Source of the DNA: a virus
Taxonomy: Duplodnaviria; Caudoviricetes
Length of the DNA stretch: 57,582 nt
Strand: one strand, 5' to 3'
IMG/VR virus record: IMGVR_UViG_3300037751_000355
Location: 1 to 57,582 of that record
Shown here: piece after piece, positions 1-54,599 of the stretch
How the letters are laid out: each line of letters opens with the position of its first letter
Position numbering within the stretch: position 1 is the first letter of the stretch
Translations under genes and position numbers: made by a program
Notes under the pieces: generated by a model
Databases searched by the model: none
The model's input: the letters and a program-made list of their open reading frames with translations, nothing else
What the model was told of the DNA's origin: nothing

Positions 1-112
1 GTCGATCCCACGAGCGCCACCGGACAGCACGACCGTGGGCAAGATGCCCGATTCCTCCACGGCCTTCACCACGAGTGTGTAGCTGTTGAGGTCGCGGGAA
101 CCGGCGATGATC
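1..112. repeat. Exact direct repeat of 55297-55408 (circularisation overlap or start of duplicated hypervariable locus)
   Basis: Base-by-base identity of 1-112 with 55297-55408; the copies diverge at 113/55409. Confidence 0.95.
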
Positions 113-120
113 GTTCTCAT
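1..120 (-). CDS. YspA/SLOG-family protein, N-terminal part only (cut by window edge); allele of 55030-55416
   Basis: Minus-strand ATG at 120 gives MRTIIAGSRDLNSY..., matching MRVIIAGSRDLNSY of the full copy. Confidence 0.8.
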   Translation of the reverse strand, partial: MRTIIAGSRDLNSYTLVVKAVEESGILPTVVLSGGARGID

Positions 121-353
121 GGCTCGCTCCTCTCGGGTGCGGCGCGGAGACGTTTGAGTAGGTCGCGGGCGTCTCGCAGCGCGACTCCGATCACGAGGTC
201 GGGGTCGTGGTTCGGGCGTGCCGGAATCGACATGACCCACTCGCGCGAGCCCTCCCTACCTCTCGGCTTGCACAGCGCGGACACCATATCCCACGCTCGG
301 TCAATGCGCGCTTCGACGGCGTCGAGGCTCATGTCTCGGTCATTGGTCGTCAC
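117..353 (-). CDS. Hypothetical protein (allele A; near-identical to 55610-55843)
   Basis: ORF overlapping both neighbours; the second copy differs by a few substitutions. Confidence 0.8.
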   Translation of the reverse strand: MTTNDRDMSLDAVEARIDRAWDMVSALCKPRGREGSREWVMSIPARPNHDPDLVIGVALRDARDLLKRLRAAPERSEP

Positions 354-1452
354 TGGTTGCTTCTCCCGTATCTGTTGTGGCGCCCCCGGAGCGGAGCCGG
401 GCGGCGAAGATGTCCGATAGCGAGCGGCTGTCGAACCGCTTATCGGCGTCCTGAGCGTAATGGAGCGCGTCCATCGCCTCGTCGAGCGTGTAGCGGGGCT
501 CGGCTGCGGAGTTCTGGCGGGATGCTTGGTAAATGCTGTACTCCCCTATCGGTAGTTCTCCACCGAGTAGGATGCGGAATCCAGCGTCATGCGCATGATC
601 TCCTGTCACCTTGAATACTGCTACCGTCTCGGCTGTCGAGAAGTAGTCTCCGACGAACCTGACTGTCTCCTCGAACGCCTCAGCGTCCGACCCCGCAATC
701 TCTGGCGTGAGCTGTCCACCGCCACCCGCTTCGATCATGCGATACCACTGCGCGCGTCGCGTCAGCCAATTGACGATCTGGTCACGCTTCGCTTCCAGTT
801 CCGCCACGTCCTTGGGGGAGTGGAGCGGGTGGGCCTCGGTAACGGGTTCGTTAGGCGACAGCCTCGGCGGCTCCGGTGCTGGCCATCCGTCGGGAACGGG
901 GTCCGGCACCTTCCACCCCGGCGTGTGCGGCGGAACCTTGACTGGTGCACGCTCCCCGGATGGCTCGGGGGAGCGGAGCGCGGCGAGGATGCGGTCGGCG
1001 TGTTTGCTGAGGTCGATGCCCTCAGGGAGCGCCCCGTAATCGTGGATATGCACGTTCGTACACACGTCGGAGAGCATATCCAGTAGCAGCTCCCGCGCTT
1101 CCCCCACGTCGGCCCCTCGCACGTCCTCGGGGGAGCGGCGACGGTCGGTGCGGGAGCGATTCCACACGCGTCCGCTTGCAGCAGCCTCGGCCGCGTGTCG
1201 GACGTCCGGGTCACGCTCCCCCCGGGGACGCTCTCTCCGTCGCTCGCGCGGCGTGTCTCCTCGGTCGGGGCGCTCGGCAACTTCTACGAGAAGCCCCTTT
1301 TTCCACTTCTCCCACAAGTTGATCGCGACCGGGATCTGGTTGCTCCAGTGGGATGCAGCGGTCGATACTTCGTCGTAATGAGTGCGTAACCCGGCGGCCT
1401 GTTCCTCGATCGGAACCGCGCAAGCCTGGTCGGGGCGCTCGGGGGTGCTCAT
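340..1452 (-). CDS. Mosaic multi-module hypothetical protein (allele A of hypervariable locus)
   Basis: Probable start MSTPERPD at 1452 overlapping the upstream stop; contains linkers TDRRRSPEDVRGADV, ALRSPEP, AAEPRYTL and RLRSGGATTDTGEATSD shared with 55833-57582. Confidence 0.7.
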   Translation of the reverse strand: MSTPERPDQACAVPIEEQAAGLRTHYDEVSTAASHWSNQIPVAINLWEKWKKGLLVEVAERPDRGDTPRERRRERPRGERDPDVRHAAEAAASGRVWNRSRTDRRRSPEDVRGADVGEARELLLDMLSDVCTNVHIHDYGALPEGIDLSKHADRILAALRSPEPSGERAPVKVPPHTPGWKVPDPVPDGWPAPEPPRLSPNEPVTEAHPLHSPKDVAELEAKRDQIVNWLTRRAQWYRMIEAGGGGQLTPEIAGSDAEAFEETVRFVGDYFSTAETVAVFKVTGDHAHDAGFRILLGGELPIGEYSIYQASRQNSAAEPRYTLDEAMDALHYAQDADKRFDSRSLSDIFAARLRSGGATTDTGEATSDDQ

Positions 1453-1682
1453 GGGAAGTCGCTCCGGTACGACGGACGCACGGTGATTCGCGCGCACCGC
1501 ACGACACCGCGACGACGCATCCGTCTCCACTCGCCGCCGTCGATCCAATCGGGCCGCGCGGCGAGTGAATCGCGCCGAGTCGGGCGAACCGTGCTTTCCC
1601 ACAGATGCCACCTACCCTCGGGGGCGAATCCCTGCCGGAACCAGACTGCCCATGCGAAATCGTGAATACCGTCTGTGCTCAC
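1449..1682 (-). CDS. Hypothetical protein
   Basis: GTG start overlapping the TGA of 1679-1888, with GGAGG upstream. Confidence 0.55.
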   Translation of the reverse strand: MSTDGIHDFAWAVWFRQGFAPEGRWHLWESTVRPTRRDSLAARPDWIDGGEWRRMRRRGVVRCARITVRPSYRSDFP

Positions 1683-1888
1683 TTCGAACCTCCCTCCTCT
1701 CGGGGTGCGCGGCGCTCGCCTTTCCGCTTGTCGGTCGTGACCGTGGGCTGTCCGCATTTGGGGCAGGGCGACGCAGCGTCGGCTAGCCATTCGTAGCGGC
1801 ACGAGTAGCACACGAGATGGACCGGCGGGTCGACGGGACTCGGGTGGCCTTCTACGTGGTGGAGGTCGAGCTTCGCTGCCCCTCTCAC
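1679..1888 (-). CDS. Small zinc-ribbon protein
   Basis: CYSC...CPKCG; translationally coupled on both sides. Confidence 0.65.
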   Translation of the reverse strand: MRGAAKLDLHHVEGHPSPVDPPVHLVCYSCRYEWLADAASPCPKCGQPTVTTDKRKGERRAPREEGGSK

Positions 1889-2868
1889 TTCGTGCCTCCT
1901 TCCGCTTCGGGGGTGGCGAGGCAGTAGATCGCGCGAAGCTCCTCCTCGGTCATCTCAGCGAGCGTCGGGATGACGGGTCCATCCGCTGCGAGGCAACGGT
2001 TTTCCACGCTCTCGATGATCTGCGCGATGGCAGCCAGCGCCTCCCTCTCGGGCTCCGCTGCCGTGGGGGCGGGGGAGCGGAGCGCGTAGAGCGCGTGCCT
2101 CAGTGCTACGATCTCCCTCATGGCGTCCGCTACGATCCGGTTGCCGTGGGCGTCGTATCCGCCTTCGGATCCGTCTAGCGCGTCGTCGAGGTCGATCGTG
2201 TTGAAGTCGTGCCATGGGGCGTCTCGCTGCGGATCCACCTCCCACCATGCCCTCCCCGTCTCGGCGGGCTCGGGAGCGGAGAGCAGGGCGAGGTCCTCAC
2301 GCCAAATGACATGCCGCTTGATCTGGCTGATGAGGGTTTGGGCGACCCCGAACCGCGCGGCCAAATCCCGCTGACTGTCGGAGGATGCGCGGATCTCCCG
2401 CACTTCATCCCATGAGAGCGCAGCATTGTTGCCCAACTCGCCAGACTGTTCGCCGTTTCGGCCCTTTCTCGCCCGATCCGCGTTATTCTGAGCCTTTGTG
2501 CCGAGCCATAAGTGTTCCGGATTAACGCACGACGGGTTGTCGCATTCGTGACAAACACACCTGTCTGGCGGGATCTGTCCGCAATGGATCAGCCAGGAGA
2601 CCCTATGCGCGTACCAAGATTGACCACCCCACTGGAAGCAGCCATATCCAGCGTCACTGGTGCCCGCCGTCCATGCCCAACATCCGGACTCGTCATCCAC
2701 CCGGTACTTCTCGTGAAAGCGTGCCCTTACCGCTGCGTCTACCACGGGCGCGCTGTACACGGCGAGGATGCGGTCGGCGCACTCGGTAGGCGACCAGTCC
2801 TTGATCGCCCTGCCCAACTCGTATTCGACCTCCGCCGCCACGCGCTCCCGCAGCTCCTCGCTCACCAT
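1885..2868 (-). CDS. Mosaic protein with embedded HNH endonuclease plus HTH module
   Basis: CWAW...GYG...AHRVSW...VCHECDNPSCVNPEHL...N is a typical HNH motif, followed by SQRDLAARFGVAQTLISQIK (HTH); carries APEPAET and ALRSPAPTAA linkers. Confidence 0.8.
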   Translation of the reverse strand: MVSEELRERVAAEVEYELGRAIKDWSPTECADRILAVYSAPVVDAAVRARFHEKYRVDDESGCWAWTAGTSDAGYGCFQWGGQSWYAHRVSWLIHCGQIPPDRCVCHECDNPSCVNPEHLWLGTKAQNNADRARKGRNGEQSGELGNNAALSWDEVREIRASSDSQRDLAARFGVAQTLISQIKRHVIWREDLALLSAPEPAETGRAWWEVDPQRDAPWHDFNTIDLDDALDGSEGGYDAHGNRIVADAMREIVALRHALYALRSPAPTAAEPEREALAAIAQIIESVENRCLAADGPVIPTLAEMTEEELRAIYCLATPEAEGGTK

Positions 2869-3122
2869 CCCAGCACCCCCGACCCGACCGCGACCACGAC
2901 CAGGACCGCGAGAAGGCCAAACATGAGCGCCGCGAGCGCCTGCAACGCGAGCTCGACGAAGCGACGCCACTCCGCCTCCATGTCGTCTCCGTTGGCGACG
3001 CGCGGGCCCTCATCCATGTCGTCGGGCAGGTAGGATGCGAGCCGGATCTGCGTGCGCTCTGCCGCTGCCAGCGTCTCGCGGTCCGGGTGGGTGACGCGGC
3101 CGTTCGTGTGGACGTCGGTCAT
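2862..3122 (-). CDS. Hypothetical membrane protein
   Basis: C-terminal hydrophobic stretch; AGGAGG upstream of the ATG. Confidence 0.6.
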   Translation of the reverse strand: MTDVHTNGRVTHPDRETLAAAERTQIRLASYLPDDMDEGPRVANGDDMEAEWRRFVELALQALAALMFGLLAVLVVVAVGSGVLGW

Positions 3123-3304
3123 GGGGTGCCTCCTGTGGGTGCGAGTCGTGTATTCCGTGTTTTCATCGTCCGCTTCGGCCACCGCGGCGGGATCTGCCCT
3201 CCGAGCACCATCCCCCGGCGGGCGTCGTCCTCGATCAGCTTCACGTAGCCGTCGTGCTCACTGTCCGGCATGTCGACGAGCACCACCCAACGCTCACGCG
3301 CCAT
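3119..3304 (-). CDS. Hypothetical protein
   Basis: Coupled small ORF in the minus-strand array. Confidence 0.5.
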   Translation of the reverse strand: MARERWVVLVDMPDSEHDGYVKLIEDDARRGMVLGGQIPPRWPKRTMKTRNTRLAPTGGTP

Positions 3305-3704
3305 CGGTCGACTCCTCGTCTGTGAGGGAGGCGCGGATCGTCGCGTCCATCACCAACCCAACCTCGCCTTCGTGGACGAAATCATGGACTGCACCCGGCG
3401 GGTCGTAGCCGTCGTCACCGTCTAGATCATCGTCGGCGCCCAGCCATTCCTCGAACGCCGCGACAAGCTTTTGTTGGTCGAGGAGTGGTAGGAACCATGT
3501 GCCGTGCTCGCCGAAGACGATTTCTGGCACGCGCTCCCACTCATCCCACACGTAATCCTCACCCTCGACCATCGTGTAGATCGCGAGCGTGGGGTCCGTG
3601 CCGCAGTCCCGGCAGCCCGTGTAGACCTCCAGGCCGTACCACGTGCCGTTGGGGCCCGACAGCCGCACGAGCCCGCTCGGCTCACCACATCCGCAGCTAC
3701 CCAT
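3294..3704 (-). CDS. Hypothetical Cys-containing acidic protein
   Basis: Starts MGSCGCG with GGAGG RBS; ends with ASLTDE junction shared with 3697-3963. Confidence 0.6.
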   Translation of the reverse strand: MGSCGCGEPSGLVRLSGPNGTWYGLEVYTGCRDCGTDPTLAIYTMVEGEDYVWDEWERVPEIVFGEHGTWFLPLLDQQKLVAAFEEWLGADDDLDGDDGYDPPGAVHDFVHEGEVGLVMDATIRASLTDEESTDGA

Positions 3705-3963
3705 TCGTCCCTCCGGGCTCGTCTGTGAGGGAGGCGAGAGCGGCTTCGGCGATCTCGCCCATATCGATGGCGACGGTGCACATGGCCCCGAGTGTCGGTC
3801 GATGTAGCGCATCTATGCCGACGATCTCCCGCAGGGCCTCCACGAGAGCGTCGAGGTGCGTCCCCACGACAGCATCCGCCCTCAGCTTGCGGACGACCTC
3901 GCACTCGGAGCCGTCGGACTCGTAGAGTCGCTCACCGTCAGTCCACCGGCGGATCGTGCTCAT
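3697..3963 (-). CDS. Hypothetical protein
   Basis: Starts MSTIRRW with GGAGG RBS; ends ALASLTDEPGG. Confidence 0.6.
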   Translation of the reverse strand: MSTIRRWTDGERLYESDGSECEVVRKLRADAVVGTHLDALVEALREIVGIDALHRPTLGAMCTVAIDMGEIAEAALASLTDEPGGTNG

Positions 3964-4154
3964 TCGGCCTCCGTGGGTGTCGTGGGGGTGGGCTCCTCGA
4001 CGGCTTCGTCCGTCCGCTCCGTATGCTCCGTAGCCGTCCCTCCCCTGCTGTTGATCCATTCGGCCCACTGCCGGTAGTCGTCGTAGCACATGATGCATGT
4101 GCTCGACTCGTGGTCGGCCGGAAGCGGCAAACCGCACATCGCGCACCCGCTCAC
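3960..4154 (-). CDS. Small Cys-motif protein
   Basis: CAMC...CIMC; GTGA/ATGA overlaps with neighbours. Confidence 0.55.
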   Translation of the reverse strand: MSGCAMCGLPLPADHESSTCIMCYDDYRQWAEWINSRGGTATEHTERTDEAVEEPTPTTPTEAE

Positions 4155-4390: not shown

Positions 4391-4656
4391 GTCGACACCC
4401 CACACAGCGCGATCACCGTGAGCTCGTTCGGGTAGTCGAGCATTGCGAGCGTGGACGTCACCCGGCTCTTGGCCGAGTTGTAGGCCTCGATCTCCTCCAG
4501 CCTCGTGAGGAGTCTCGAAACCTCTCCCCACGCATCTTGTGTATGCCGAGAACACATCGCCTTCGTCTCGAAGTCCGTCACGACCTCCTCAAGCGCCTTC
4601 GCATTCGCATACCTCTCAATCGCATCTTCGAGGCGCGCTCGTTGCTCGTAGGTCAT
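4384..4656 (-). CDS. Hypothetical protein
   Basis: ATG with GGAGG RBS. Confidence 0.55.
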   Translation of the reverse strand: MTYEQRARLEDAIERYANAKALEEVVTDFETKAMCSRHTQDAWGEVSRLLTRLEEIEAYNSAKSRVTSTLAMLDYPNELTVIALCGVSTW

Positions 4657-4843
4657 CGCTCGTTCCTCCGCTTCAACCACTCGTACCAAGCGATTATCGG
4701 AAGCGCGCTCGTGATCGGAGCGTACCCCAAAATTCTCCCCTTCGCATCCCGCATCTCTCGCTTGAGCGTGAACGTCACCCTCTCGCCCGTGCGAAGGTCC
4801 GTCGTTGCGTGAATCATCTTTCCCTCCTCCGTTGAGCTTAAAT

Positions 4844-5122
4844 CTACTTCAATTTCTTCGCTTGCGCAAGTCTCTCCCTCAACGTGTCGCTTCCGTTATC
4901 CGCATACTCCTGCGCCCGTTCCTGCTCATGGTCCCACCTCGCCTCCATCTCCGCATCGACCTCCTCCTCCATATCGTCCTCATACCACCGCCAAAGGGCG
5001 GTAGCCAACGCGGAAAGATACGCGGACGAGTCGGACCCCTGTTGCCAAGCGTCGCTCGCAAGATCCTGAAACTCCTCGTACAACGCCTCGATCTTCCCTT
5101 CAGCGATCTCCTTTCGCGTCAT
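4844..5122 (-). CDS. Acidic hypothetical protein
   Basis: Starts MTRKEIAEG with GGAGG RBS; D/E-rich. Confidence 0.6.
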   Translation of the reverse strand: MTRKEIAEGKIEALYEEFQDLASDAWQQGSDSSAYLSALATALWRWYEDDMEEEVDAEMEARWDHEQERAQEYADNGSDTLRERLAQAKKLK

Positions 5123-5572: not shown

Positions 5573-6471
5573 TTGGCTTCCTTCCTCCTAAACTGAGTCA
5601 TCATCAACGCCCTTCTCACATTCTCCGATGGCGCCGTGCACAACGGAAGGAACTCACACCCTCCGTAGTTATTACACGCCTTCTCGTTCTTCGGCCAAAT
5701 CCCTGACTCCTCGTGCGCTCGTTCCTGCGCCTCCAGCCCCGTCACCCACCAATGAGCGTCGGCGATTTGCTCCTGCGTGAAGTCAACGAGTTTCAACGCG
5801 GAGGGGGCGCTCTTCCGCTTCTTCCACGCCTCCGGAGGATCCAACGCCTTCTCTCCCATATAGACAGCGTTGATTAGTCCCCCATCGACTCGAATCCCCT
5901 CAAGAGACTGCATTTGAGCGGCGTAAATCCGAAGCTGATGACTAATCCGAAATTGCATAAACCAATAGTCATTAATCCATTGCGTCGTGCACTTGAGGTC
6001 AGGAATATAATGCTTCCCTCCGTGCAAGAGCACAAAATCCGGAATACTCGTCACACTCACAACGCCCGAATCCCCTACCCATTCAAAAGTCTTCTTCACC
6101 CCCGACCACTCCTTCAACACCTCCCCTTCCTCAAGGATCGTAGGCGACTCCTCCCGCTCCTGCATGTAGAGTCTAAGCCGCTCCTCAAGAAAGGGGAGCG
6201 TCAACCACGGGTGCTTCGACCCGAGGGGCGTCCGGGTGTCTCCCCAGGACTCCGCGAGCGCCGTTGCCGCTTCCGAGAAGTCCCACGCTTTCGTGTAAAG
6301 TACGTTAAAGGCGGCGTCGATCGCACTCCCCGCGAGCATCGGAAGCTTCGTGTCGGGTGCCTCTAACTCCTCCCGATACTTATAGTCGAAAAGCTGCGCG
6401 CAATTCGCGAGAGTCGAAAGCGACGAATACGAATGAGGTCTGTCCATTATCGCGTCCTCCAAGTCCACCAC
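5569..6471 (-). CDS. PD-(D/E)xK exonuclease (Cas4/RecB-like, recombination)
   Basis: HSYSSLST..C, IPDF...DLK, QLRIY, and C-terminal Cys cluster CNNYGGCEFLPLC. Confidence 0.85.
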   Translation of the reverse strand: MVDLEDAIMDRPHSYSSLSTLANCAQLFDYKYREELEAPDTKLPMLAGSAIDAAFNVLYTKAWDFSEAATALAESWGDTRTPLGSKHPWLTLPFLEERLRLYMQEREESPTILEEGEVLKEWSGVKKTFEWVGDSGVVSVTSIPDFVLLHGGKHYIPDLKCTTQWINDYWFMQFRISHQLRIYAAQMQSLEGIRVDGGLINAVYMGEKALDPPEAWKKRKSAPSALKLVDFTQEQIADAHWWVTGLEAQERAHEESGIWPKNEKACNNYGGCEFLPLCTAPSENVRRALMMTQFRRKEAK

Positions 6472-19005: not shown

Positions 19006-21930
19006 ATGCCTTTACTTTCCGAAGTTAAATTCGGTCCCGAGCGTAAGGAGGAGTTTCTCGCGTGGATTCGCCGCGAAATCCTCCAAACCGAAGGTGATCG
19101 TGCGGGGCTTGAGAGGACGTGGGAGAATCACCTTCTCGCTTGGAGGGCGAAGGTTACGGATGAGGAACTCGATTATCCGTATCCCGGAGCGCCCTACTCC
19201 CGCGACACCGAGATCCTTACGCGCACCGGCTGGAAAGCCATCGACGAAGTCGAGGTCGGTGAGTACGTCCTGACGCGACGAGATGAAGATTCCGCGCTTG
19301 AGTGGAATCCTGTGCTGGCTAAGCCCTCTGTATGGGCCAAGGAACTCTATCATCTCCAGAGCCAGACCGTTGACCTCATGGTCACGGCCGGACATACGAT
19401 GGTGGTGGAGAACCAGAAAGGTGAACTCAAGAGGATGCCGATGGAGGATATGTGGGGGAAAGAAGGCTATTTCATCCCCCTCATGGGCACATACGAAGGT
19501 GTTGACGCTGAAAAGCTTTTCGGGCTTGATGCTGAAGATGTCGCTGAGTTTGTCGGGTGGTATATCGCAGAAGGGTCCAAGACCAACTCCGGTAGTGTGC
19601 TGATTGCCCAGAAGAAGCCTCACGGGCGCCGCGCGTTGGAGGCTCTGTTTGAGCGTCTTGGGTTCTCCTACACGGCCTACCCCAATAGCTACACCGTCCA
19701 TGCGAAATCCATGCCAGATCAGCTTCTGTTCTGGCTTGATATGGGTGTATGTGACGAGAAAAGGATTCCGGGGTTCTTTTACGGTGCATCTCCTAGGATC
19801 ATCAAGCGCCTGTTTGCGGGGATGATCGCGGGCGATGGGCACGTAAAGTGGGCTCCTGGCGCTAACCATCCGCAGATTACCTACCATACTACGTCTTCTG
19901 GGCTGGCTGACGACTTCCAGGCTCTAGCTCAGCTCATTGGTAAGCGTTCTACCATCATCTATCGGGACCGCAGTGGTGAACCCGGCGGTACGATTGATGG
20001 AAGGACGATCGTGGCGACCCGCAAGCAGGCTTCAATTGGCTTGCTGCATCACACGAGGGCGAAGATCCGTAAGCAGCACTACAAAGAAGTCGTCGAGTAC
20101 AACGACTTCGCCTACTGTGTGACGGTCAAAAACCATGCAGTGTATGTGCGGAGGAATGGGAAGCCGTGTTGGAGCGGTAATTCAAACCTAGAACTCCCCC
20201 TTACGGCGATGCACGCCGACCCCGTCCTCGCCGATATGCTTCAGAGCTTTTCGGCGTCGGAAGACTACTGGCACGCGGTAGCGAAACGCCCCGATCGCGT
20301 AGACGTCGCGTCGGCCCTTAGGGAGGGCCTGACAGCGATCGAGAAGCGCTTCCTTAAGATGCGCCGGATCAACGAGAAGGCCTTCCTCGAAGATATCGTG
20401 CTCGGGACCGCCTTTTACAAGAACCACTGGAAGTCCGAGAGACGGCGCCGGAGGCGTTACGAGGCGGATGGGGAGTCTGTGAGTGAAATCCTCATGGTAT
20501 CCCAACCCTCGATCGAGTTTGTTCCGATCCAACGCATCCGGTTCCCGGCGTATGCGTGGAGTCTCGACTTCAACGCTCCCGGAGGCACTCCTTGGATTAC
20601 GCAGGAGTTCCGATGGAGTCGTGAGGAGTTCGAGCGCTACCGTAAGGGATCGGAGGAACTCGTTGGCTTCGATACGGACGCCGCCGAAGACGTATCGACG
20701 TGGTTTTCGGACGAAGAAGAGCCCATTCGCTCCCTCATGGAGGAGGAAGACGAGTTCGAGGCGTTCGAGGACCTGAAGCACAAGGTCTTCGAGGTGTGGG
20801 CGCGTTTCGACACCCGAGGGGATGGGACGTACGAGGACATCGTGGCTTGGATTCACCTGGGAGTCCCTGCGGTCCTTCGTGCGATCTACTTCCCCAACGC
20901 TCACGGAACACACCCCTTCCATAAGATCAACTACCTTCCGGGATACGGAATCTACGGGATCGGGCTCGCGGAGATCGACGAGTGGGCTCAGGATGGAGCG
21001 ACACAACTCCTCAACGCCCAAATCGACAACGCCCGCCTCGCGAACACGAGGATGTTTTCGGCTCCCGAGGGTTCGATGCACGCGCAGGACGAACTCGTTT
21101 ACCCCGGGAAGGTGTGGTATCTTGGGCCTGACGAAGCGATCGGGGAGGTTCGACTCTCGGATCTTTATCCTTCGGGATTCGGACTCCTTCAGCAACTCGT
21201 TTCGTTCTCGGAACTCCGTTCGGGCGTGAATGAACTCCGTCAAGGAAGTCTCTCGGGCCTCCCCTCTCGAACTCCCGCCACGTCGCTCCTCTCGATCATG
21301 CGCGAGGGCAACAAGCGTTTCGACATGATCCACACGGGGATTCGAGACGTTCACTCCGAGATGGGCCTTCGGATGACTCAGAACGTCGCGCAGCGCGTGA
21401 AAGACGATCCCCTCCGGTGGCAGACGTTCTTTGCAAACGTCCTCGGACCCGAGGACGCCGGTCGCGTCCTCTCGGTCCTAACGTCTCCGGACGTCGAAGC
21501 GATCGAAGAGGCGTTTGGTATTAGCGTTACCGCGACGAGCGCGAGCGTGAACAAGGAAGTAGAGAAGCAGTCCTTCGTTGGGATGCTACAACTCACCCAA
21601 CAAATCCACGCCGCTCTCACCCAAACGATGCTCCTTCACGCTCAAGTCCCCGACCCGATGGTGCAAGCGGTCGCTAAGGCGTCCTTCGTGTCGGGAGTCG
21701 ACATTCTCCGACAACTCCTTGAGCGCTTCGAGGTCCAAAACGTCGACGAGCACATGGGGAACCTCGAAGTTATCGCGAACTCCTTCCGCGCCGAAGGACA
21801 ACCCGGAGGCAACGCCGCTACGGGTCAGTTCTTCGACCAATCCAACCTCGGGATTCTCGGCAGCGCCGGAGGAGTCCCTCCACAAGGCCTTGATATGAAC
21901 TCCATCGCCGCTCTTCTAGGAATCGGATGA
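19006..21930 (+). CDS. Portal protein (P22-like) containing an intein
   Basis: Follows TerL; extein junction reconstitutes the portal motif PYPGA|SNL; YGIGLAE, N..IDN, RTPAT motifs. Confidence 0.88.
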   Translation: MPLLSEVKFGPERKEEFLAWIRREILQTEGDRAGLERTWENHLLAWRAKVTDEELDYPYPGAPYSRDTEILTRTGWKAIDEVEVGEYVLTRRDEDSALEWNPVLAKPSVWAKELYHLQSQTVDLMVTAGHTMVVENQKGELKRMPMEDMWGKEGYFIPLMGTYEGVDAEKLFGLDAEDVAEFVGWYIAEGSKTNSGSVLIAQKKPHGRRALEALFERLGFSYTAYPNSYTVHAKSMPDQLLFWLDMGVCDEKRIPGFFYGASPRIIKRLFAGMIAGDGHVKWAPGANHPQITYHTTSSGLADDFQALAQLIGKRSTIIYRDRSGEPGGTIDGRTIVATRKQASIGLLHHTRAKIRKQHYKEVVEYNDFAYCVTVKNHAVYVRRNGKPCWSGNSNLELPLTAMHADPVLADMLQSFSASEDYWHAVAKRPDRVDVASALREGLTAIEKRFLKMRRINEKAFLEDIVLGTAFYKNHWKSERRRRRRYEADGESVSEILMVSQPSIEFVPIQRIRFPAYAWSLDFNAPGGTPWITQEFRWSREEFERYRKGSEELVGFDTDAAEDVSTWFSDEEEPIRSLMEEEDEFEAFEDLKHKVFEVWARFDTRGDGTYEDIVAWIHLGVPAVLRAIYFPNAHGTHPFHKINYLPGYGIYGIGLAEIDEWAQDGATQLLNAQIDNARLANTRMFSAPEGSMHAQDELVYPGKVWYLGPDEAIGEVRLSDLYPSGFGLLQQLVSFSELRSGVNELRQGSLSGLPSRTPATSLLSIMREGNKRFDMIHTGIRDVHSEMGLRMTQNVAQRVKDDPLRWQTFFANVLGPEDAGRVLSVLTSPDVEAIEEAFGISVTATSASVNKEVEKQSFVGMLQLTQQIHAALTQTMLLHAQVPDPMVQAVAKASFVSGVDILRQLLERFEVQNVDEHMGNLEVIANSFRAEGQPGGNAATGQFFDQSNLGILGSAGGVPPQGLDMNSIAALLGIG
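19192..20181 (+). mobile_element. 330-aa intein with LAGLIDADG homing endonuclease; begins with Pro
   Basis: Block A PYSRDTEILT, block B VTAGH, LAGLIDADG motifs GWYIAEGS and AGMIAGDG, block F AYCVTV, block G WSGN|S. Confidence 0.92.
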
Positions 21931-45948: not shown

Positions 45949-46977
45949 TCACGCGTAAACCTCACGCATCTCCGACCACGAAGTCGTAGTCGCCTGCACC
46001 TCCGCAGGAATCACCAACGTCCTCCCCCCAACCTCGAAGGGAACCTCCATCTCTTCACGTACGAGTCGAGCGACTCGTGAAAGATCGCGCGGGGCACAGT
46101 CGAGGAGGATTTCGTCGTGGACGTTTTGGAGTAAACGCAAGGGCGAGGGGTCGTACTTCTCGTAAAGACGCCTAAGGGCTCCGTTAAGGGCCATCGCGTT
46201 TGCGCTTTGGGGTCCGTCCGCAATCGCCTCCCGAACGATCGCTTGGCGCGCCCCGTCCGTGTCGTCCCTCCCGAAGTACATCCGCTTCCGACCGAAAGGG
46301 TTTATCGTAAACTTATACGTGAGCGCTTGCTCGGCGATCTCACCCCACCACGCAACCGTCCGAGGAAAGCGCTCGCTCCAAATCGCTTCCATCTTTTTCG
46401 CCTTCGCCGCCGAGATCGAAACCCCATGCAAGTCGAAGTCGTCGTTCACACTCTTCTGAAGCGTCCTCCACCCAACTCGATACTGTCCGCTTAGGACTCC
46501 CACTTTCCCAAAGGAGTTCCTCCACGTCTTAGGAACCTCCTCCCACCTCGTCTCGTCGTCCCACTCCACGAGAGCCGCGAAGACGTTGTACTCGTCTACA
46601 CCCGAGGTTTGGAGTCGGATGCGGTCTTCATCTCCGGCGATATAGGCGCACCACCGAGCCTCCGCGCGAGAGTAGTCGGCGGCCACGAGTACACGGCCTG
46701 GGTGCGGAATGATCGCATCTCGCACTTTATACAACGAGTCTCCGAGGGCGGTTTTCTTGGGAAGGGTAGCAAGGTTATAGGATCCGGGATCAAAGAGCCA
46801 AGTAGACCCATGAGAAAATCGAGTCGTTTCCGTTCCGGCTGGATTTTGAAAGGAGTGAACCGCGCCATCACTCGCCGGAGCAATGCCCTCATAAATAGAC
46901 CTCATCTTCACGAGTTTTGTGAGTGTAAGGCTCGCTCCGATTAGAGAACGTGCGAGGGGAGCGTCTTCGCGCTTCAC
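45949..46977 (-). CDS. Family A DNA polymerase, polymerase domain (C-terminal half of a split gene)
   Basis: T.R.S, motif A ADYSRAEAR, motif B R....K.......Y, FGRKR, motif C VHDEI. Confidence 0.9.
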   Translation of the reverse strand: MKREDAPLARSLIGASLTLTKLVKMRSIYEGIAPASDGAVHSFQNPAGTETTRFSHGSTWLFDPGSYNLATLPKKTALGDSLYKVRDAIIPHPGRVLVAADYSRAEARWCAYIAGDEDRIRLQTSGVDEYNVFAALVEWDDETRWEEVPKTWRNSFGKVGVLSGQYRVGWRTLQKSVNDDFDLHGVSISAAKAKKMEAIWSERFPRTVAWWGEIAEQALTYKFTINPFGRKRMYFGRDDTDGARQAIVREAIADGPQSANAMALNGALRRLYEKYDPSPLRLLQNVHDEILLDCAPRDLSRVARLVREEMEVPFEVGGRTLVIPAEVQATTTSWSEMREVYA

Positions 46978-48593
46978 GTAGGAATCCCTCCCAAAAGCGC
47001 CTTAAGCGCCGCTTCGTCCGCCGTAGGTCGTCCGTCCTTCATCTTCTTAGGAAGCCTAAGCACATCGTAAAGGAGTGTCTTCATTTGTTCCGTGGAGTTC
47101 GCATTAAACGTCCATCGCGTCTCGCGAGGCGCCCCACAACACACATGACACACCGGAAGCAACTCTCGCGCAAGGTCTTCCTTGCTTCGTTTCGTCTTCT
47201 TGTCAAACTCTAGCTTGTCAAGCATCTCGGCTTTCGTCGGCGCCTTCTCGAACCCCGCGCACGCCCAACACGCGAATTGCTTATTCTTCCCGTGCCCACA
47301 ACAAGTGCACGTCGGATCAGTCTCTTCAAAGAGATGCCTCACTTCGAGGCGCTCCAACTCATCCGCCACGCGATCAAGCAAGGGCCTCACGACCTCAAAC
47401 GCTTCTCGCGACACCTCTTCCGCCCTCGCGGAAAGCGCCTCGACCCTTTCCCTCCGCAACCCATCGTCAACGTTAAGCCCTCGCGCGAGCATATCCACAC
47501 AAGGCCACATAAGACTCCGCTCGTGCTCATACACGTCTTCCGCCCCGACGTCCTCGACCGCCTTCATCACGTAATCCCACACATCGAGCGTAATCGCGCA
47601 GTCCTTCCCATTATAGACAAAGAACTCCTCCTCCGTCTCATAGTCTCCTTTCCACCACTTATCCATCGTCGTCAACGACGCTAAGAACGAGAGACTCTTC
47701 CTCGTGAAGCGGTGCTTCTTCCGATCCTCTTTCGCCCCCGCAAGCTCGGGGTAAGCACTGTGCCAAGCGATTTGGGCGTCGTCAACACGCGCCTGAAACT
47801 TCACCCCACACCGATGCTTCAGAACAAAGAGATCATAGATCCCATTCGCCCACACCGTCGTCACGCCTCGGCTTCCAAGAAGCTCCGAAGCTCGATCAAG
47901 ATATTGCGCAGGGAAGACGTACGCCTTTCCGCTTTCGCCAGCAAAGCCAATACATGCGAGTGAGGTGTCTGGCCTCGTCTCAATGTCTGAGCTAAGGACT
48001 CGAAAGCGTCTAAGATCGCTAAGAGCGCGTCGAGCGTCACGATCGCTTCCGATGATCTCGACGTTACGGGTCGGTCGTACACACCCATCTCGGGATATCC
48101 TTTGAGCTTTGAGAAGGTCTTGGGTTAGGAGGGCGCGCCAGGGACTCCACGCTCTCGCAATGCTTGCGGGGTGCGTCGCCGCCGCGACGGGCGCCCCTAC
48201 GAGAGAGTCGAATACATACCCTCGTCGGTTTTCGATATCGGTCGCCCTTCGGATGTCTCCCCGATGACCGAGCGCTCCCCCGACGCGGCCATCAGGCCAT
48301 TCCTCGACGAGAGCGTGGCACGCCTCGGCGCCTAACGCCACGATCACACGAGGTTTAAGGCGTCGAAGGCGTTCGTGGAGGGCGTCGACTCCTTCGGCGA
48401 TCCCGAAGCGTGAGGCGGCAGCGAAGAGCCCTCTCGGGGGAGTCTCTTGGAGGATCGTGAGGATCTCGACTCTATCTCGCGTGAGCCCCGCCTCCCGGAG
48501 CGAGTCGTTAAGAATCCGCTCCCACTCGTACGCGGATACCGAAGACTTCCCGACACGATGGAGTCCAGGGAAGTCCGCTACGAGAGCTAGCAC
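46974..48593 (-). CDS. Family A DNA polymerase N-terminal half: UDG-like domain, 3'-5' exonuclease and Cys-rich thumb insertion
   Basis: VIVALG.EA...THPA (UDG-like); DIET, ANGIYD, YNGKD (Exo I-III); CTCC/CWAC/CHVC; FNANS..Q...LLY. Confidence 0.85.
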   Translation of the reverse strand: MLALVADFPGLHRVGKSSVSAYEWERILNDSLREAGLTRDRVEILTILQETPPRGLFAAASRFGIAEGVDALHERLRRLKPRVIVALGAEACHALVEEWPDGRVGGALGHRGDIRRATDIENRRGYVFDSLVGAPVAAATHPASIARAWSPWRALLTQDLLKAQRISRDGCVRPTRNVEIIGSDRDARRALSDLRRFRVLSSDIETRPDTSLACIGFAGESGKAYVFPAQYLDRASELLGSRGVTTVWANGIYDLFVLKHRCGVKFQARVDDAQIAWHSAYPELAGAKEDRKKHRFTRKSLSFLASLTTMDKWWKGDYETEEEFFVYNGKDCAITLDVWDYVMKAVEDVGAEDVYEHERSLMWPCVDMLARGLNVDDGLRRERVEALSARAEEVSREAFEVVRPLLDRVADELERLEVRHLFEETDPTCTCCGHGKNKQFACWACAGFEKAPTKAEMLDKLEFDKKTKRSKEDLARELLPVCHVCCGAPRETRWTFNANSTEQMKTLLYDVLRLPKKMKDGRPTADEAALKALLGGIPT

Positions 48594-49151: not shown

Positions 49152-50060
49152 TTACTCCTCCGAAAACTGTGCGGACGCAAGCCGCTCTTTATACCACTCA
49201 GGAAGTCCCAACGTCGTCCCCTTCAAGATTTGCTTCCTATAATACCCGTAAAGCATTTGAGCGATCTCATCCGCGCACTCCTCGTGCACATCCACTTGGA
49301 TCGCAGCGATCAGGGGTCCGATGTCTTGAGGAGCGTCTTGCAACTCCCCCACGTCCCGAAGTCTCTCGATCGCCTTCTCCCACCGACGCTCATGACAATA
49401 ACGCTCTTGGATTTGCGCAAGAATATCGTTCTTCGTCGTCGCCTTCCAGCCGGGATTCTTCGAGTGTTGCTCCTTGAACTCCTCCGTGACGTACTTCCCC
49501 ATCAACATCTTCCCATCACGCTCCCCAAAGCGCTCGTAGTTCTTGATAACGATCCCCTCCATCCGACCCCCGAGGAAGCTCAGATTCTTCGTGAGAGCCT
49601 TGAGGGAGTCGAGATCGGAGACTATTCCCCGGTAGAACTCCGGGGTCGCTTCACACCCAATTTCCTCGGCGGCTATCGCGAGGGCGTGCGGGGCGTCGAT
49701 CCGATCCTCGACTCCTCGGTCGATGTCGAAGAGCACCAGATTCCCTAAGGGGGCGCGTTCATACACGAGGGTATTATGGAGAGGGCCGCGCATCGCTTCC
49801 CCCCGATACACCCACCCGTCCACGAGAACCCCTCGCTCAAACGCTGCACGCGCCGTCGCGATGGTCCCCAGGAAGAGCGCATCGGGCGCGTCGGGGTCTA
49901 TCTGACGCCCACGACTCCTCGCGAAGAACTCCCCGTCGCGCACCCCAAAGCCGAATTGACTCCCATCGACCTTTTCTTGCACGACCACAGGACCATCGAA
50001 CAAGTCGCGTATCACGCGATGTCCGAGATTGTAAACCTTCGGGTAGCTAGGAAGCGTCAT
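49152..50060 (-). CDS. RNA ligase (Rnl2-like nucleotidyltransferase)
   Basis: YPKV, motif I EKVDGS, GE, FDI, motif IV EGIVIK, K...FKE. Confidence 0.85.
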   Translation of the reverse strand: MTLPSYPKVYNLGHRVIRDLFDGPVVVQEKVDGSQFGFGVRDGEFFARSRGRQIDPDAPDALFLGTIATARAAFERGVLVDGWVYRGEAMRGPLHNTLVYERAPLGNLVLFDIDRGVEDRIDAPHALAIAAEEIGCEATPEFYRGIVSDLDSLKALTKNLSFLGGRMEGIVIKNYERFGERDGKMLMGKYVTEEFKEQHSKNPGWKATTKNDILAQIQERYCHERRWEKAIERLRDVGELQDAPQDIGPLIAAIQVDVHEECADEIAQMLYGYYRKQILKGTTLGLPEWYKERLASAQFSEE

Positions 50061-50416
50061 CCTTCGTCCTCCGGCGGCAGCAGGGCCTCGATGCGGTCGG
50101 CCAGGGATGTGATCCAGGGGTTGTATTGATCCGGCGGTCCGTAGTCACCATGCCCGTGCGTCACCGTACTGCGAGCCATGGCACGGAGATGGTCCACGTC
50201 CTCCCTGGTGAACCCAAACGATTGCTCGTGGAGGCAGAGTGCAGCTAGTGCGTGGCGGTGACCACCCACGAGGCAGAACCCCGCGTCGTCTCCGAGTTCT
50301 ATCGTCGTGGCCCCGCCGTCGTCCATCATCACAATGCCGTAGCCCATGTCATACCGAGCGTACCCAGCCTCTCCCACCCACTCCTCCGCCGTCAACGCCC
50401 TTCTGATCTCACTCAT
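50057..50416 (-). CDS. Hypothetical protein
   Basis: GAGGAGG RBS; ends LADRIEALLPP, resembling the ADRIL linker. Confidence 0.6.
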   Translation of the reverse strand: MSEIRRALTAEEWVGEAGYARYDMGYGIVMMDDGGATTIELGDDAGFCLVGGHRHALAALCLHEQSFGFTREDVDHLRAMARSTVTHGHGDYGPPDQYNPWITSLADRIEALLPPEDEG

Positions 50417-50600
50417 CGTCGTCCTCCTCGAAAACGCTAGTCTCTTCACAATCCTCAATCTCCCCCGCCCGCTTCAAGTAGGAGCGACCTCCGTCAACCG
50501 CAATCGCTCCACACCCACACCAACGAAAATCGTGCCGATGAGTCGATTCGATCTCCTCCTCACACCTCCGACACCGGGCGGAATTGCGGATGATTTTCAT
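50409..50600 (-). CDS. Conserved small zinc-binding phage protein
   Basis: N.A.C..C...IES.HRHDF.WC.CG..AVDGG..Y. Confidence 0.7.
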   Translation of the reverse strand: MKIIRNSARCRRCEEEIESTHRHDFRWCGCGAIAVDGGRSYLKRAGEIEDCEETSVFEEDDDE

Positions 50601-50785
50601 CTCGTCCCTCCGCACCTTCTGCAAAATTCTGAGCCGTTGGTAGCGAGATCCCATCGGTGGTCGCACTCGGGATTGATGGGATGCCGGGAGATGACCTTAT
50701 CCGGCGCCGGACACGTCGAGCACTTCGCCATCCAGGGCGCGTAGACCGACCCACACGCAGGACAACGCCAGCCTTGTTGGGTCAT
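50597..50785 (-). CDS. Small zinc-finger protein
   Basis: GWRCPACG.V.AP...C..C. Confidence 0.6.
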   Translation of the reverse strand: MTQQGWRCPACGSVYAPWMAKCSTCPAPDKVISRHPINPECDHRWDLATNGSEFCRRCGGTR

Positions 50786-50810
50786 GTTCGTCTCCTGAGA
50801 AATGCGAGAG

Positions 50811-50888
50811 TGGAGGAGGCGGGATTTGCACCCGCGTCCCATCAGTTCGCCTTAGCGGTATCCTGATGGTCGACTCTATGTCTCCCCC
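50811..50888 (-). ncRNA. Minimal tmRNA (tRNA-like domain only)
   Basis: GGGGGAG/CTCCTCC-A acceptor with G3.U70; unpaired D-loop ending TCGA; helix CCATCAG/CTGATGG; GAC; T-arm GCGGG-TGCAAAT-CCCGC. Confidence 0.8.
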
Positions 50889-51005
50889 TTCCTGTTTCTC
50901 TAGCTTTGTTATGGCGTGTAACGTGGCAACCTCGACATAACGCTACTAGATTTTCGGGCTCGTTAGCACTTCGTTTTCACATTCTGCGCAGACTATGATT
51001 TCCAT
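50842..51005 (-). pseudogene. Degraded HNH endonuclease remnant
   Basis: MEIIVCAECENE start, then out-of-frame NEPENLVALCRGCHVTRH. Confidence 0.55.
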
Positions 51006-51115
51006 ATGTGGATTGCTCTCTAAGTCGACGTCGCCCCCGAGGGGGTGCGACCTCCTATCCGAACCTTCGGAGGGCGCAAGAGGAGGGGAGGGGTGTTCGG
51101 TCCTCATTCGGAGCT

Positions 51116-51679
51116 TTAGACGGCCTGGAAAATCTCCCGGACTCCAACCTCGACGCCCGACTTCTCCCCCGGGGCGTCGGTCTTCCGCACGTAACGGCGG
51201 TGCCACGTCACGACACCGAACGAGCGTCCGTCGTACTCACCGTTCCGGAGCGCCTCCAGGAAGCCATCCGTGATCGTCACGTACGTCTTGCCCTCGTACT
51301 CCACGTCCTCAGTCGCTCCCGCAGCCGTAGCGAGAAGAGCAAGAAGCGTAGCGCTCCGCTGCATCTGCCACGAGGCCTCCGGAATCGACTCCGCGATCGT
51401 CGTCGCTCCATCCCGAACCACGAGGTCCACGAAGAGCTTCTGATTCGTCGTCTCTCCCGTCTCGGGGTTGCGACCGCTCCCAAACTGAAGCGAGAGGATC
51501 TCCCCGTCCTCCGAAGCGTAACCCGTGTTCTTCCCCGCTGCGACGTTGGCCGCAACGAAATCCGGGAAGGGTCGCTCCCTCACGAGGTCGAGGTCGACGT
51601 ACCACGTCCCCTCGGGAAACTCCGAGGAGCGAGGCTTCGAAAAGTCCTCGACCGACGACTTGGGTACCATGATGGTCAT
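51116..51679 (-). CDS. Probable ssDNA-binding protein (DUF669-like)
   Basis: FPEG.W motif, beta-rich; AAGGAG RBS; near the Sak4-like ATPase. Confidence 0.5.
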   Translation of the reverse strand: MTIMVPKSSVEDFSKPRSSEFPEGTWYVDLDLVRERPFPDFVAANVAAGKNTGYASEDGEILSLQFGSGRNPETGETTNQKLFVDLVVRDGATTIAESIPEASWQMQRSATLLALLATAAGATEDVEYEGKTYVTITDGFLEALRNGEYDGRSFGVVTWHRRYVRKTDAPGEKSGVEVGVREIFQAV

Positions 51680-51713
51680 TTCTGATGCTACTCCTTTTGT
51701 TGGGAAAATGAAT

Positions 51714-52076
51714 CTAAACTAATCCAAGTTTAGAAGCAAGGGGTTGCCGCTTCGCTCCCGCGAGGGCGAACGCAATGCCTCCGGCGGGGAGTCGTAGGTA
51801 AGGGCGCTCGATTCTAGGAGCACCTCGCTCCTCGAAGGCCTTCCTCTCTTTTCGCGCCCGATAGATTGCGAGACGTTCCGAGAGGGGAATCGCGGGGGGC
51901 GTCGACATCGTCTTCTTCGTATACGTTCGCGCCTCCGAACGACACTCCTTACACCTATCGAGGTCGTCTGAGTCCACGAACGCCTTCCTTCCACCCCTAG
52001 ACGTCTTAGGGGTCGGGAACCACTCGGAAGGACGACGCTCTTGACACGCGGCGCAGCGACGTAAACGGCGGCTCAT
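51714..52076 (-). CDS. Hypothetical basic zinc-finger protein
   Basis: CAAC...F...CKEC. Confidence 0.55.
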   Translation of the reverse strand: MSRRLRRCAACQERRPSEWFPTPKTSRGGRKAFVDSDDLDRCKECRSEARTYTKKTMSTPPAIPLSERLAIYRARKERKAFEERGAPRIERPYLRLPAGGIAFALAGAKRQPLASKLGLV

Positions 52077-52384
52077 GGAAGCAACCCCCGCAACACCGCC
52101 GCCTCGGGCGCAATCATCGTGGGGATATGGTATAGAGTCACGATAAACGAAATCATCAAAGCTATGCCAACCGATGACACCACAAGAACCACAAGCTCAT
52201 CATCGAATCGTGGTCGCGCCCAACGCAATAAAACGAAAAACACAATCGTTAAAATAAGAGTTACGCTTGCAGCCGTCATAGCCACCGCCAACTCGTAACG
52301 CACCAACGCCTCCCACAAATGTGCCCCCGTAGCGCCAAAACGCGCCGCAAGCTCATCTAGGACATTCGCGATTTCTTGGCTCAT
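52073..52384 (-). CDS. Hypothetical membrane protein
   Basis: LA..FG.T..HLW..LV, two TM segments, PE motif. Confidence 0.65.
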   Translation of the reverse strand: MSQEIANVLDELAARFGATGAHLWEALVRYELAVAMTAASVTLILTIVFFVLLRWARPRFDDELVVLVVSSVGIALMISFIVTLYHIPTMIAPEAAVLRGLLP

Positions 52385-52761
52385 GCGGATATCTCCTTAC
52401 TCAGTATATTTCCCCGCTCGATAGAACGAACGACAACAGCACCACGCGTGGCCGCTTCCAACGAATCTCGCACCCACTTATCGTGCGCCTCCAAGATCGT
52501 GATACGACTAGCGCGCACCTGCGGCCCCTTGGCGGGCACGAAGGAGGCGTATGGGTGATTGGTTACCCACAACTTGTACGGCCCTAGGTATACGTGGTGT
52601 GGGTCTTCCTCGTTCGATAGGAAATAATAAACTGGCCTAAAAGAGTGTTCAATCAACGCCCCCTTCAAGAGAGTATCCCACCGCGCATCGAAAGGATAGT
52701 TAAGCATCCAGCAACTAGGCGTCATGAAAACCCGCCACGCGCCTTTGAGTTTCTTAAGCAT
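52381..52761 (-). CDS. Hypothetical protein
   Basis: WD..L...LWVTNHPYA motif. Confidence 0.6.
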   Translation of the reverse strand: MLKKLKGAWRVFMTPSCWMLNYPFDARWDTLLKGALIEHSFRPVYYFLSNEEDPHHVYLGPYKLWVTNHPYASFVPAKGPQVRASRITILEAHDKWVRDSLEAATRGAVVVRSIERGNILSKEISA

Positions 52762-53838: not shown

Positions 53839-54447
53839 TCATACAGCCTCCACTACTTCATCCGCTCCCACGATCGCGAGCGCCTGATCCGCATTGAGGA
53901 GCACCCTCCGCTCCCCCTCGACCTCAAGATCCGTCCCCGCATACAAGGAGTAAAGAATCCTCGCCCCTACGTAAAGGTCCTCGTCCTCCACATCTCTCCC
54001 AACGTCCACGATAACTCCCGTGACAGGCCTCTTCTCGCTCGTCTCGGGACGAATCACAACCCCTTTCTGCGTCGGAGCGTCCGGCCGCACCAAAAGCCTC
54101 GTTCCAAGTGTCTTCATAGTCTCCTCACGATTCCAAGGAATAACCCGCGCCACGAGTGCGGCGTGTAGAAGGTAACGCTCCCGCACCCGAGGGGCAACCT
54201 CCCCGTCAAATCTCTCCTCCTCTCCGATCTCGTAATCTAGGAAGATGCCTGAGTTCGGAGGAGTCACGAGGATGTCGCCTTCGTGAAGCGTCATTTTGAG
54301 GTGTTCTTCCGCCTCTTTCGACGAAACCGCAACCTCCCAAAGCGCCCTCGAATTATCTTGACGCCACGCGGGGGCAATCCAAATCCCCCTCGCCTTCTCA
54401 GGCTTCTCGTACTTGTGAGCAACGATCAATTCGTGTCTAAGGCGCAC
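53839..54447 (-). CDS. Tandem GroES (Cpn10)-like co-chaperonin
   Basis: Second domain MKTLGTRLLVRP...GVVIRP...GVIVDVG...VGARILY..YAGT is GroES-like; first domain is a degenerate GroES in the same frame. Confidence 0.75.
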   Translation of the reverse strand: MRLRHELIVAHKYEKPEKARGIWIAPAWRQDNSRALWEVAVSSKEAEEHLKMTLHEGDILVTPPNSGIFLDYEIGEEERFDGEVAPRVRERYLLHAALVARVIPWNREETMKTLGTRLLVRPDAPTQKGVVIRPETSEKRPVTGVIVDVGRDVEDEDLYVGARILYSLYAGTDLEVEGERRVLLNADQALAIVGADEVVEAV

Positions 54448-54599
54448 CGCGCATCTCCCGGAAGAGTTCTCTGAGGACAAAGTTTCCACCGCCGCTCCGT
54501 GCAAGGAGCCGATCCCCGTTCGGGAGGAACGCGATTTGCGCACGTTCGGCGTCAAAGCCTTCAAGGTCACCGAACGATTCCACATAAAGGCGTGCGGCG

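Follow-up and report, generated by a model that had tools for sequence, protein, structure and literature searches.

The minus strand of the window, by which we mean the whole 57,582-bp stretch of viral DNA analysed here, very probably carries at 50811–50888 a genuine phage gene that encodes a tmRNA cut down to nothing but the tRNA-like domain (TLD). The original prediction had proposed this identity, and it is borne out by the G3:U70 pair, discriminator A73, stemless D-loop, linker and T arm, by an end-to-end match to the Rfam tmRNA model, by the predicted fold and by covariation among viral relatives.

Sequence and fold of the mini-tmRNA

The RNA as first read is an exact match to the reverse complement of 50811–50888; the layout then assigned to it stands, and the strand, which had been left unstated, is the minus strand. 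The 7-bp acceptor stem, G3:U70 and discriminator A73, the elements of alanine identity, are all present. The D-loop end, UCGAC, and the GGAC linker before the T arm are aligned to RF00023 at high posterior probability. The T stem is tmRNA-like, as had been proposed, whereas its loop, UGCAAAU, departs from the usual UUCGAUU. CCA is not encoded, and CUC follows the discriminator A. The RNA is without a D stem and its 7-bp arm bears a 17-nt loop, unlike the cloverleaf of a tRNA. Within that loop a 3-bp hairpin, CGC-UAAG-GCG, stands where a tmRNA has its pseudoknots and tag frame. The minimum-free-energy fold consists of the three helices plus this hairpin, at −36 kcal/mol, and none of 200 shuffled sequences was as stable.

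Table 1. Parts of the mini-tmRNA and two genes that follow it on the same strand of the window
Feature	Position	Strand	Remarks
Mini-tmRNA gene (tRNA-like domain only)	50811..50888	-	78 nt to discriminator A; RF00023 41.9 bits, R1 68.7 bits (own sequence in training set); fold z = -4.04
Acceptor stem 5' strand GGGGGAG (RNA nt 1-7)	50882..50888	-	Pairs with 50812-50818; G3 with U70
Stemless D-loop ACAUAGAGUCGA (12 nt, nt 8-19)	50870..50881	-	'AG' (alphaproteobacterial-type) class
P2-like helix CCAUCAG/CUGAUGG (nt 20-26 and 44-50)	50839..50869	-	Closes 17-nt loop, nt 27-43
GAC linker (nt 51-53) and T arm GCGGG-UGCAAAU-CCCGC (nt 54-70)	50819..50838	-	5-bp T stem, 7-nt T-loop
Acceptor stem 3' strand CUCCUCC (nt 71-77) and discriminator A (nt 78, at 50811)	50811..50818	-	
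Zinc-ribbon-like ORF, 62 aa (CxxC...CxxC...CxxC)	50597..50785	-	Starts 26 nt past the RNA; context
RNA ligase gene	49152..50060	-	PF09414 E = 7.6e-11, phrog_548 E = 5.1e-20; context

DNA contigs from other sediment or soil runs (X2, X9 and, in part, X1) show no differences within 50811–50888. With 23 variable places in 1101 nt, about 1.6 would be expected in 78 nt, and the difference is not significant. One joint of 50851 to 50963, in contigs of X1 and X2, has a 25-letter side and is too weak to trust. Some contigs of X2 and X9 match just the T arm and the 3' part of the acceptor stem and diverge at window 50839–50840. Such contigs could carry tmRNA or tRNA genes from other sampled organisms, the host possibly among them.

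Match to tmRNA models

The Rfam tmRNA model RF00023 aligns to 50808–50888 (−) over model positions 1–374, 13 nt standing in for 306 core positions. This is the Infernal check that had been suggested, and the replacement agrees with the predicted loss of pseudoknots and tag frame. The score of 41.9 bits lies under the gathering score of 47, with E-values of 2e-15 for the 501 nt searched and 5.5e-17 for the whole record. Other mini-tmRNAs score above it (67.4 bits in L027, 65.7 in L033 and 53.0 in L004), and the accepted TLD-only tmRNA of Mycobacterium phage DS6A, at 43.2 bits, is also under it. That this accepted member behaves in the same way supports the TLD-only identity of the window's RNA. 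Among the models of the tRNA clan, tmRNA is the best match to 50811–50888. The mitochondrial tmRNA model RF02544 is not among the matches listed at E ≤ 10; two lower-scoring matches from the same clan were not displayed.

Other identities were rejected. The RNA shares its TLD with canonical tmRNA (RF00023) and with the two-piece alphaproteobacterial form (RF01849, RF04321). It differs from both in having no pseudoknots, resume codon or tag frame, and from the permuted alphaproteobacterial genes in being one piece in standard order. A canonical tagging tmRNA is rejected for want of these parts, together with the silence of ARAGORN. A two-piece (permuted) gene is rejected as well: RF04321 gives only 15.7 bits, over model positions 32–106, and no second copy of the 5' half was found with up to 3 mismatches. 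A tRNA, such as tRNA-Ala, would have a cloverleaf, and ARAGORN calls none at this position, where tmRNA is the better match within the clan. The loop can also be read as a tag mini-ORF, GCU-AAG-GCG-AAC-UGA, and frames of this GCN...stop kind occur at chance level across the family (19 of 83 loops, against 19.3 ± 3.5 in shuffles).

As the original prediction anticipated, standard annotators would miss the gene. ARAGORN calls neither a tmRNA nor a tRNA at the mini-tmRNA and touches 5 of 137 viral relatives (two as tRNA-Glu, three as tmRNA), and Rfam leaves the window's copy below the gathering score.

A family of closed tRNA-like domains in viruses

Relatives were looked for among 51 viral loci with homologues of the neighbouring RNA ligase. 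There, nhmmer with the single mini-tmRNA sequence gave no match, and a structural scan found closed tRNA-like domains in L027 and L033. A motif fixed on the window's own T arm retrieved no viral stretches. A loosened family motif was drawn from the window, L027 and L033, namely GGGG-N11-TCGAC-N15-45-GGAC-NNNGG-TNCNANT-CC-NNN-C, which places no constraint on U70, A73, the outer pairs of the stems or any of the central helix. The window contains this motif once, against 0.00 occurrences in 100 shuffles of the window, and at least 120 stretches of IMG/VR match it. By extrapolation, the total for the strict motif would be about 210; 22 of the 39 stretches of one subclass (AG/UGC, described below) are already among the matches listed, and the figure assumes that these are unbiased. 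The 137 viral matches that we examined comprise family-motif matches and 17 loci from a sub-motif scan, and all 137 have a fully paired 7-bp acceptor stem.

Homologue covariation, another of the checks that had been proposed, is strong. From 123 motif matches we obtained 83 unique sequences of 64–88 nt (alignment A1). Over the three helices, 92.2% of cells are paired compared with 69.0% in shuffles, changes on both sides occur in 355 cells compared with 115, and the covariation score is 0.53, against 0.07–0.135 with slid partners. The P2-like helix shows changes on both sides at six of its seven pairs. The T stem is 100% paired in the 83 sequences, and three of its five pairs covary. U70 and the discriminator A, neither of them imposed by the motif, are present in 83 of 83, as is the G3:U70 pair, and CCA is encoded in 52. 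This conservation indicates that the alanine identity of the family is under selection. A covariance model, R1, was built from the 83 sequences, of which the window's is one, with DS6A excluded; it finds the DS6A RNA at 56.4 bits.

Individual members show further features. L107 has a Pistol ribozyme match (6093–6154, −; 51.9 bits against a gathering score of 34.5) on the same strand as its mini-tmRNA (5905–5987; RF00023 81.1 bits), about 100 nt away. In L004, the ligase-linked mini-tmRNA (2224–2304, +) has the same GGGGGAG/CUCCUCC acceptor stem as the window, and its T stem, read from the sequence, apparently has six pairs and not five.

Closed forms in cellular genomes

In 185,579 prokaryotic species, one genome each, the family motif matched 29 stretches, where our own estimate of chance matches of such a kind is about 10–20. 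In twelve of the 29, the stretch is the 3' end of an ordinary full-length tmRNA gene in which the 5' motif occurs by chance (R1 41–53 bits), and seven are without an acceptor end, which leaves ten convincing closed mini-tmRNAs (R1 56.9–81.8 bits). The closed form is thus overwhelmingly viral, frequent among uncultured phages and seldom present in cellular genomes. One of the ten is on an Actinomadura sp. contig (L191, −), which holds two different mini-tmRNAs, at 4640–4718 and 4935–5013, within a 20-tRNA island that is probably a prophage. The second of the two has CUCAAC for UCGAC and GAUC for GGAC and retains G3:U70.

An alphaproteobacterial-type subclass

The window's RNA belongs to a subclass with D-loop A-G at 4 and 3 nt before UCGAC and a T-loop that starts U-G-C. 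Among the 83 unique sequences, a G at the second T-loop position goes with the D-loop A in 11 of 11 sequences of standard register (12 of 12 if one shorter loop is included); where that position is U, the D-loop has G in 62 sequences and C in 2. The resulting 2 × 2 table (62/0/0/11) gives a Fisher P of 2.8e-13, uncorrected for ancestry. Across IMG/VR, AG with UGC occurs in 39 stretches, and GG with UGC or AG with UUC in none. In tRNA, G18–ψ55 is the tertiary pair that joins D-loop and T-loop, and the co-variation fits a counterpart of this pair.

The AG/UGC combination also marks a lineage. The D-loop is shared by the Rfam alpha_tmRNA consensus (AAAuAGGAUCGAC; AUAG..UCGAC), which likewise has a G at the second position of the T-loop. 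A UGC-type T arm is found in 269 of 301 sampled genomes from the class of Microvirga, the Alphaproteobacteria (267 of 299 without G242 and G042, two genomes flagged as unpublished), and in 1 of 81 from the class of Actinomadura. By these features the TLD of the window is of alphaproteobacterial type, yet it is in closed, unpermuted order, and its type suggests an alphaproteobacterial host.

Alphaproteobacterial tmRNA genes are described as permuted and two-piece (PMC9004378, PMC11915505). A phage contig with a member of the same subclass, L155 (and likewise L130), holds at 3356–3662 a true permuted tmRNA gene (RF04321, 108.9 bits), for which ARAGORN gives the tag ANDNYAPRLALAA. Its acceptor piece is flanked on both sides by a 35-nt direct repeat (94%) of the leader and the 5' acceptor/D-loop segment. 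The first copy together with the acceptor piece makes a closed 88-nt TLD, and the acceptor piece together with the second copy makes the two-piece gene. The arrangement looks like a duplication intermediate between the permuted and closed forms.

Comparison with known TLD-only and tag-less tmRNAs

TLD-only phage tmRNA is already known, with DS6A as the one phage example in the literature that was searched, and the idea that it acts as an SmpB decoy is already in print for DS6A. The original prediction mentioned a reduced form in a mycobacteriophage, which proves to be DS6A, listed as 'TLD only' by Hudson, Lau and Williams (PMC4131195). A DS6A-like molecule, chargeable or not, is said there to 'strongly inhibit' tmRNA, perhaps by titrating SmpB (PMC4131195, citing Mao 2009; PMC11915505). 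The DS6A RNA itself (JN698994.1, 28478–28557; tmRNA Website ID 11587) lies unannotated between gp33 and the Pol III gene. It resembles the window's RNA in the 7-bp acceptor stem, G3:U70, A73, the stemless D-loop ending in UCGAC and the T arm, as well as in a short P2 helix, an A-rich loop with a small hairpin and a size of about 80 nt, and both are phage-encoded and were unannotated. In sequence, the likeness is only distant: DS6A is of GG/UUC type with a CAC linker, whereas the window has AG/UGC and GAC. The phages are unrelated, DS6A being a mycobacterial siphovirus and the window encoding an SU10-like portal and adaptor. Of the two RNAs, that of DS6A is the one whose effect has been tested, in E. 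coli.

Its mention of jakobid mitochondria in the original prediction also finds support, since PMC11915505 describes mitochondrial, as well as plastid, tmRNA forms that are without a tag. The jakobid and oomycete mitochondrial tmRNA (RF02544; Jacob et al. 2004, in PMC11915505) is without a tag frame, as in the window, and is kept together with SmpB. It is of alphaproteobacterial descent, as the TLD type suggests for the window's RNA. That of Jakoba libera is described as 're-permuted', with a closed gene order like that of the window (PMC11915505). Mitochondrial tmRNA differs from the window's RNA in being organellar and usually permuted, where the latter is viral and closed.

Engineered TLDs provide a third comparison. 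A 63-nt Thermus thermophilus construct (PDB 2CZJ) binds SmpB, and the fragment of Shimizu and Ueda (2006), when charged, makes polyalanine on mRNA-free ribosomes (both in PMC3929946). As in the natural mini-tmRNAs, both tmRNA ends are joined via a short loop in these constructs; the natural family differs in the greater length of its P2 helix and in an A-rich loop that is conserved and contains a hairpin.

The 2025 tmRNA database gives 9 'standard, no CDS' entries among 97,179 sequences, and 79 sequences from phages (PMC11915505). Our full-text literature searches found no paper that describes TLD-only tmRNA as widespread in phages, and database tables could list more. The gain from the window itself is modest, one more member, of alphaproteobacterial type, which gives a hint of the host and of descent from a permuted gene. 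What is added is the alphaproteobacterial type in closed order, the database-wide co-variation of D-loop and T-loop and the apparent duplication intermediate in L155.

Proposed function

Trans-translation is the main ribosome-rescue route of bacteria, and a TLD-only RNA would be the simplest natural tool for blocking or redirecting it. We lean towards the view that the mini-tmRNA is alanylated, binds SmpB and competes with host tmRNA at stalled ribosomes. It would be excised from its transcript by the tRNA-processing enzymes of the host, receive CCA from the host CCA-adding enzyme and acquire alanine from host AlaRS, which would recognise G3:U70 and A73. Host SmpB and EF-Tu would then bind the alanyl mini-tmRNA, and the complex would enter ribosomes that have stalled on broken mRNAs, at their empty A site, in rivalry with the full tmRNA of the host. 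Afterwards the ribosome might be released, by drop-off, Pth or ArfB-like factors, or might add further alanines. Lacking both a resume codon and a tag frame, the RNA would add no SsrA degradation tag, and the net effect would be a dominant interference with host tagging, with rescue or blockage in the absence of the degron. Since SmpB gave no match in the window record, the phage would have to use the factors of its host.

The biochemistry reported for the TLD is consistent with this proposal. SmpB binds the domain and substitutes for its missing anticodon arm, alanyl-TLD with SmpB and EF-Tu enters an empty A site at the end of an mRNA and accepts the nascent chain, and, in vitro, polyalanine is synthesised without a template in the presence of a bare TLD fragment and SmpB (PMC3929946). 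Several points speak against it. Ribosome entry is not needed for the one effect that was measured, the inhibition by the DS6A-like molecule. The T-loop departs from the tRNA consensus in its second-position G, though this is the alphaproteobacterial norm. The RF00023 score is under the gathering score.

The most serious rival, which we regard as fairly unlikely, is that the RNA is purely a sponge that ties up the SmpB of the host, possibly also AlaRS or RNase R, with no need for charging or ribosome entry. The intact tmRNA signature positions UCGAC and GGAC would serve such an RNA equally, and the published experiment showed inhibition with or without charging (PMC4131195). A sponge has no need of alanine identity, yet U70 and the discriminator A are universal in the family and CCA is frequently encoded. 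The invariance of G3:U70 and A73 suggests that charging matters, and favours a charged competitor over a passive sponge.

Somewhat less likely again is that the mini-tmRNA acts with host SmpB as an active, charged rescue RNA. It would repeatedly enter ribosomes stalled at mRNAs cut during infection and transfer alanine without a template, and the nascent chains would be freed or alanine-tailed in place of being SsrA-tagged. Together with the zinc-ribbon gene and the RNA ligase it would form a counter-defence module against RNA damage, and its closed form would have come from a two-piece gene through duplication of the 5' half, as in L155.

Given the abundance of these RNAs, the selection on their alanine identity and the fact that annotators miss them, interference of phages with ribosome rescue becomes a general and directly testable theme.

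Gene neighbourhood and further alternatives

The order on the minus strand is a DUF669-like gene, two hairpins, the mini-tmRNA, the zinc-ribbon-like ORF, a 133-aa ORF and the RNA ligase. ORF187 is the one that resembles a DUF669-type phage protein. The zinc-ribbon-like ORF has AGGAG 8 nt ahead of its ATG and a weak Pfam DZR match (E = 0.0058), and an alternative, longer frame of 81 aa would start inside the mini-tmRNA. The 133-aa ORF (ORF133, 50057–50458), between the RNA and the ligase, had a best Atlas score of 0.80 and gave no usable lead. No convincing sigma-70 promoter was found near the mini-tmRNA, and its co-transcription with the downstream genes is plausible.

The neighbours of other mini-tmRNAs are of many kinds. 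The largest cluster is DnaB helicase (21 of 124 loci), and others are capsid and protease genes, HTH proteins and tRNA clusters; nine loci out of 120 have another tRNA no more than 500 nt away. None of the top 15 neighbour clusters includes the window. Because the neighbours are so diverse, a dedicated protein partner is not indicated.

The RNA ligase, on the same strand 750 nt downstream, could suggest that the mini-tmRNA is a defence decoy, perhaps working with the ligase. Resembling tRNA or tmRNA, it would soak up anticodon or tmRNA nucleases, or engage SmpB-like defence proteins such as those of CoCoNuT. CoCoNuT systems have SmpB-like domains, and tmRNA is reported to be the commonest substrate of RtcB (PMC11090510). 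Among the 51 loci with ligase homologues, three clear mini-tmRNAs lie within 6 kb of the homologue (L033, L027 and L004) and two more are doubtful (L030 and L040). Taken from the other side, a ligase homologue is present in just 1 of 149 motif loci, so that ligase linkage was rejected as a general rule, and the RNA has no anticodon loop to offer to anticodon nucleases. The tie originally drawn to tRNA- or mRNA-cleaving defences has the nearby ligase as its sole basis and shares this lack of generality. We consider a decoy improbable.

The short distance to the zinc-ribbon-like ORF, which has a Shine-Dalgarno sequence of its own and lies in the same orientation, would also be expected of a cis element, that is, tRNA-like punctuation at which RNase P and RNase Z/E set the 5' end of the zinc-ribbon/ligase mRNA and which has no function in trans. 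Such an element needs no invariant alanine identity, tmRNA-specific D-loop, GGAC linker or D-loop/T-loop co-variation, and the family occupies many unrelated contexts; we hold this reading to be very improbable.

Slightly less probable even than this is a non-functional remnant, be it of a recently deleted full phage tmRNA, of an attP/ssrA integration or of the acceptor part of a two-piece gene: islands often integrate in ssrA, and the same-subclass relative L155/L130 overlaps a true permuted gene, but both halves of the acceptor stem are present here, the permuted model and the search for a second 5' half gave the poor results described above, the element is unchanged in contigs of three other runs (where, again, about 1.6 differences were expected), and an attP relic was rejected when no tyrosine or serine integrase or resolvase was matched in the record. 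Full tmRNAs do exist in phages (PMC9004378), and a unique recent deletion of one was the case that the original prediction had named against itself; what was found instead is a closed form with compensatory changes in the stems of at least 120 viral contigs. The charged competitor is the reading that we retain as preferred, still provisionally.

The phage genome

The window is a complete-looking IMG/VR virus record (CheckV 100%, about 58% G+C) from an uncultured phage of sediment or soil. Its recognisable genes include an SU10-type portal, an adaptor and a capsid protein, a split family-A DNA polymerase and the RNA ligase, and its single tRNA is tRNA-Asn. Megablast with window 49500–52500 gave no match among cultured phages. 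Among cultured phages, identity to the terminase does not exceed 28.8%, so that relatives give no lead to the host.

Several other genes have unusual arrangements. The portal ORF (974 aa, 19006–21930, +) has its SU10 portal domain at residues 543–775 and a LAGLIDADG domain at residues 269–328, which suggests an intein or an inserted homing endonuclease. The family-A DNA polymerase (45949–48593, −) is split into two abutting ORFs, and the upstream one has a uracil-DNA-glycosylase-like N-terminal domain. In a 248-aa protein (53839–54585, −), a Cpn10 (GroES-like) domain is limited to the C-terminal part, residues 157–239. Positions 1–4000 have 66% G+C compared with about 56–61% elsewhere and contain an HNH endonuclease ORF at 1885–2970.
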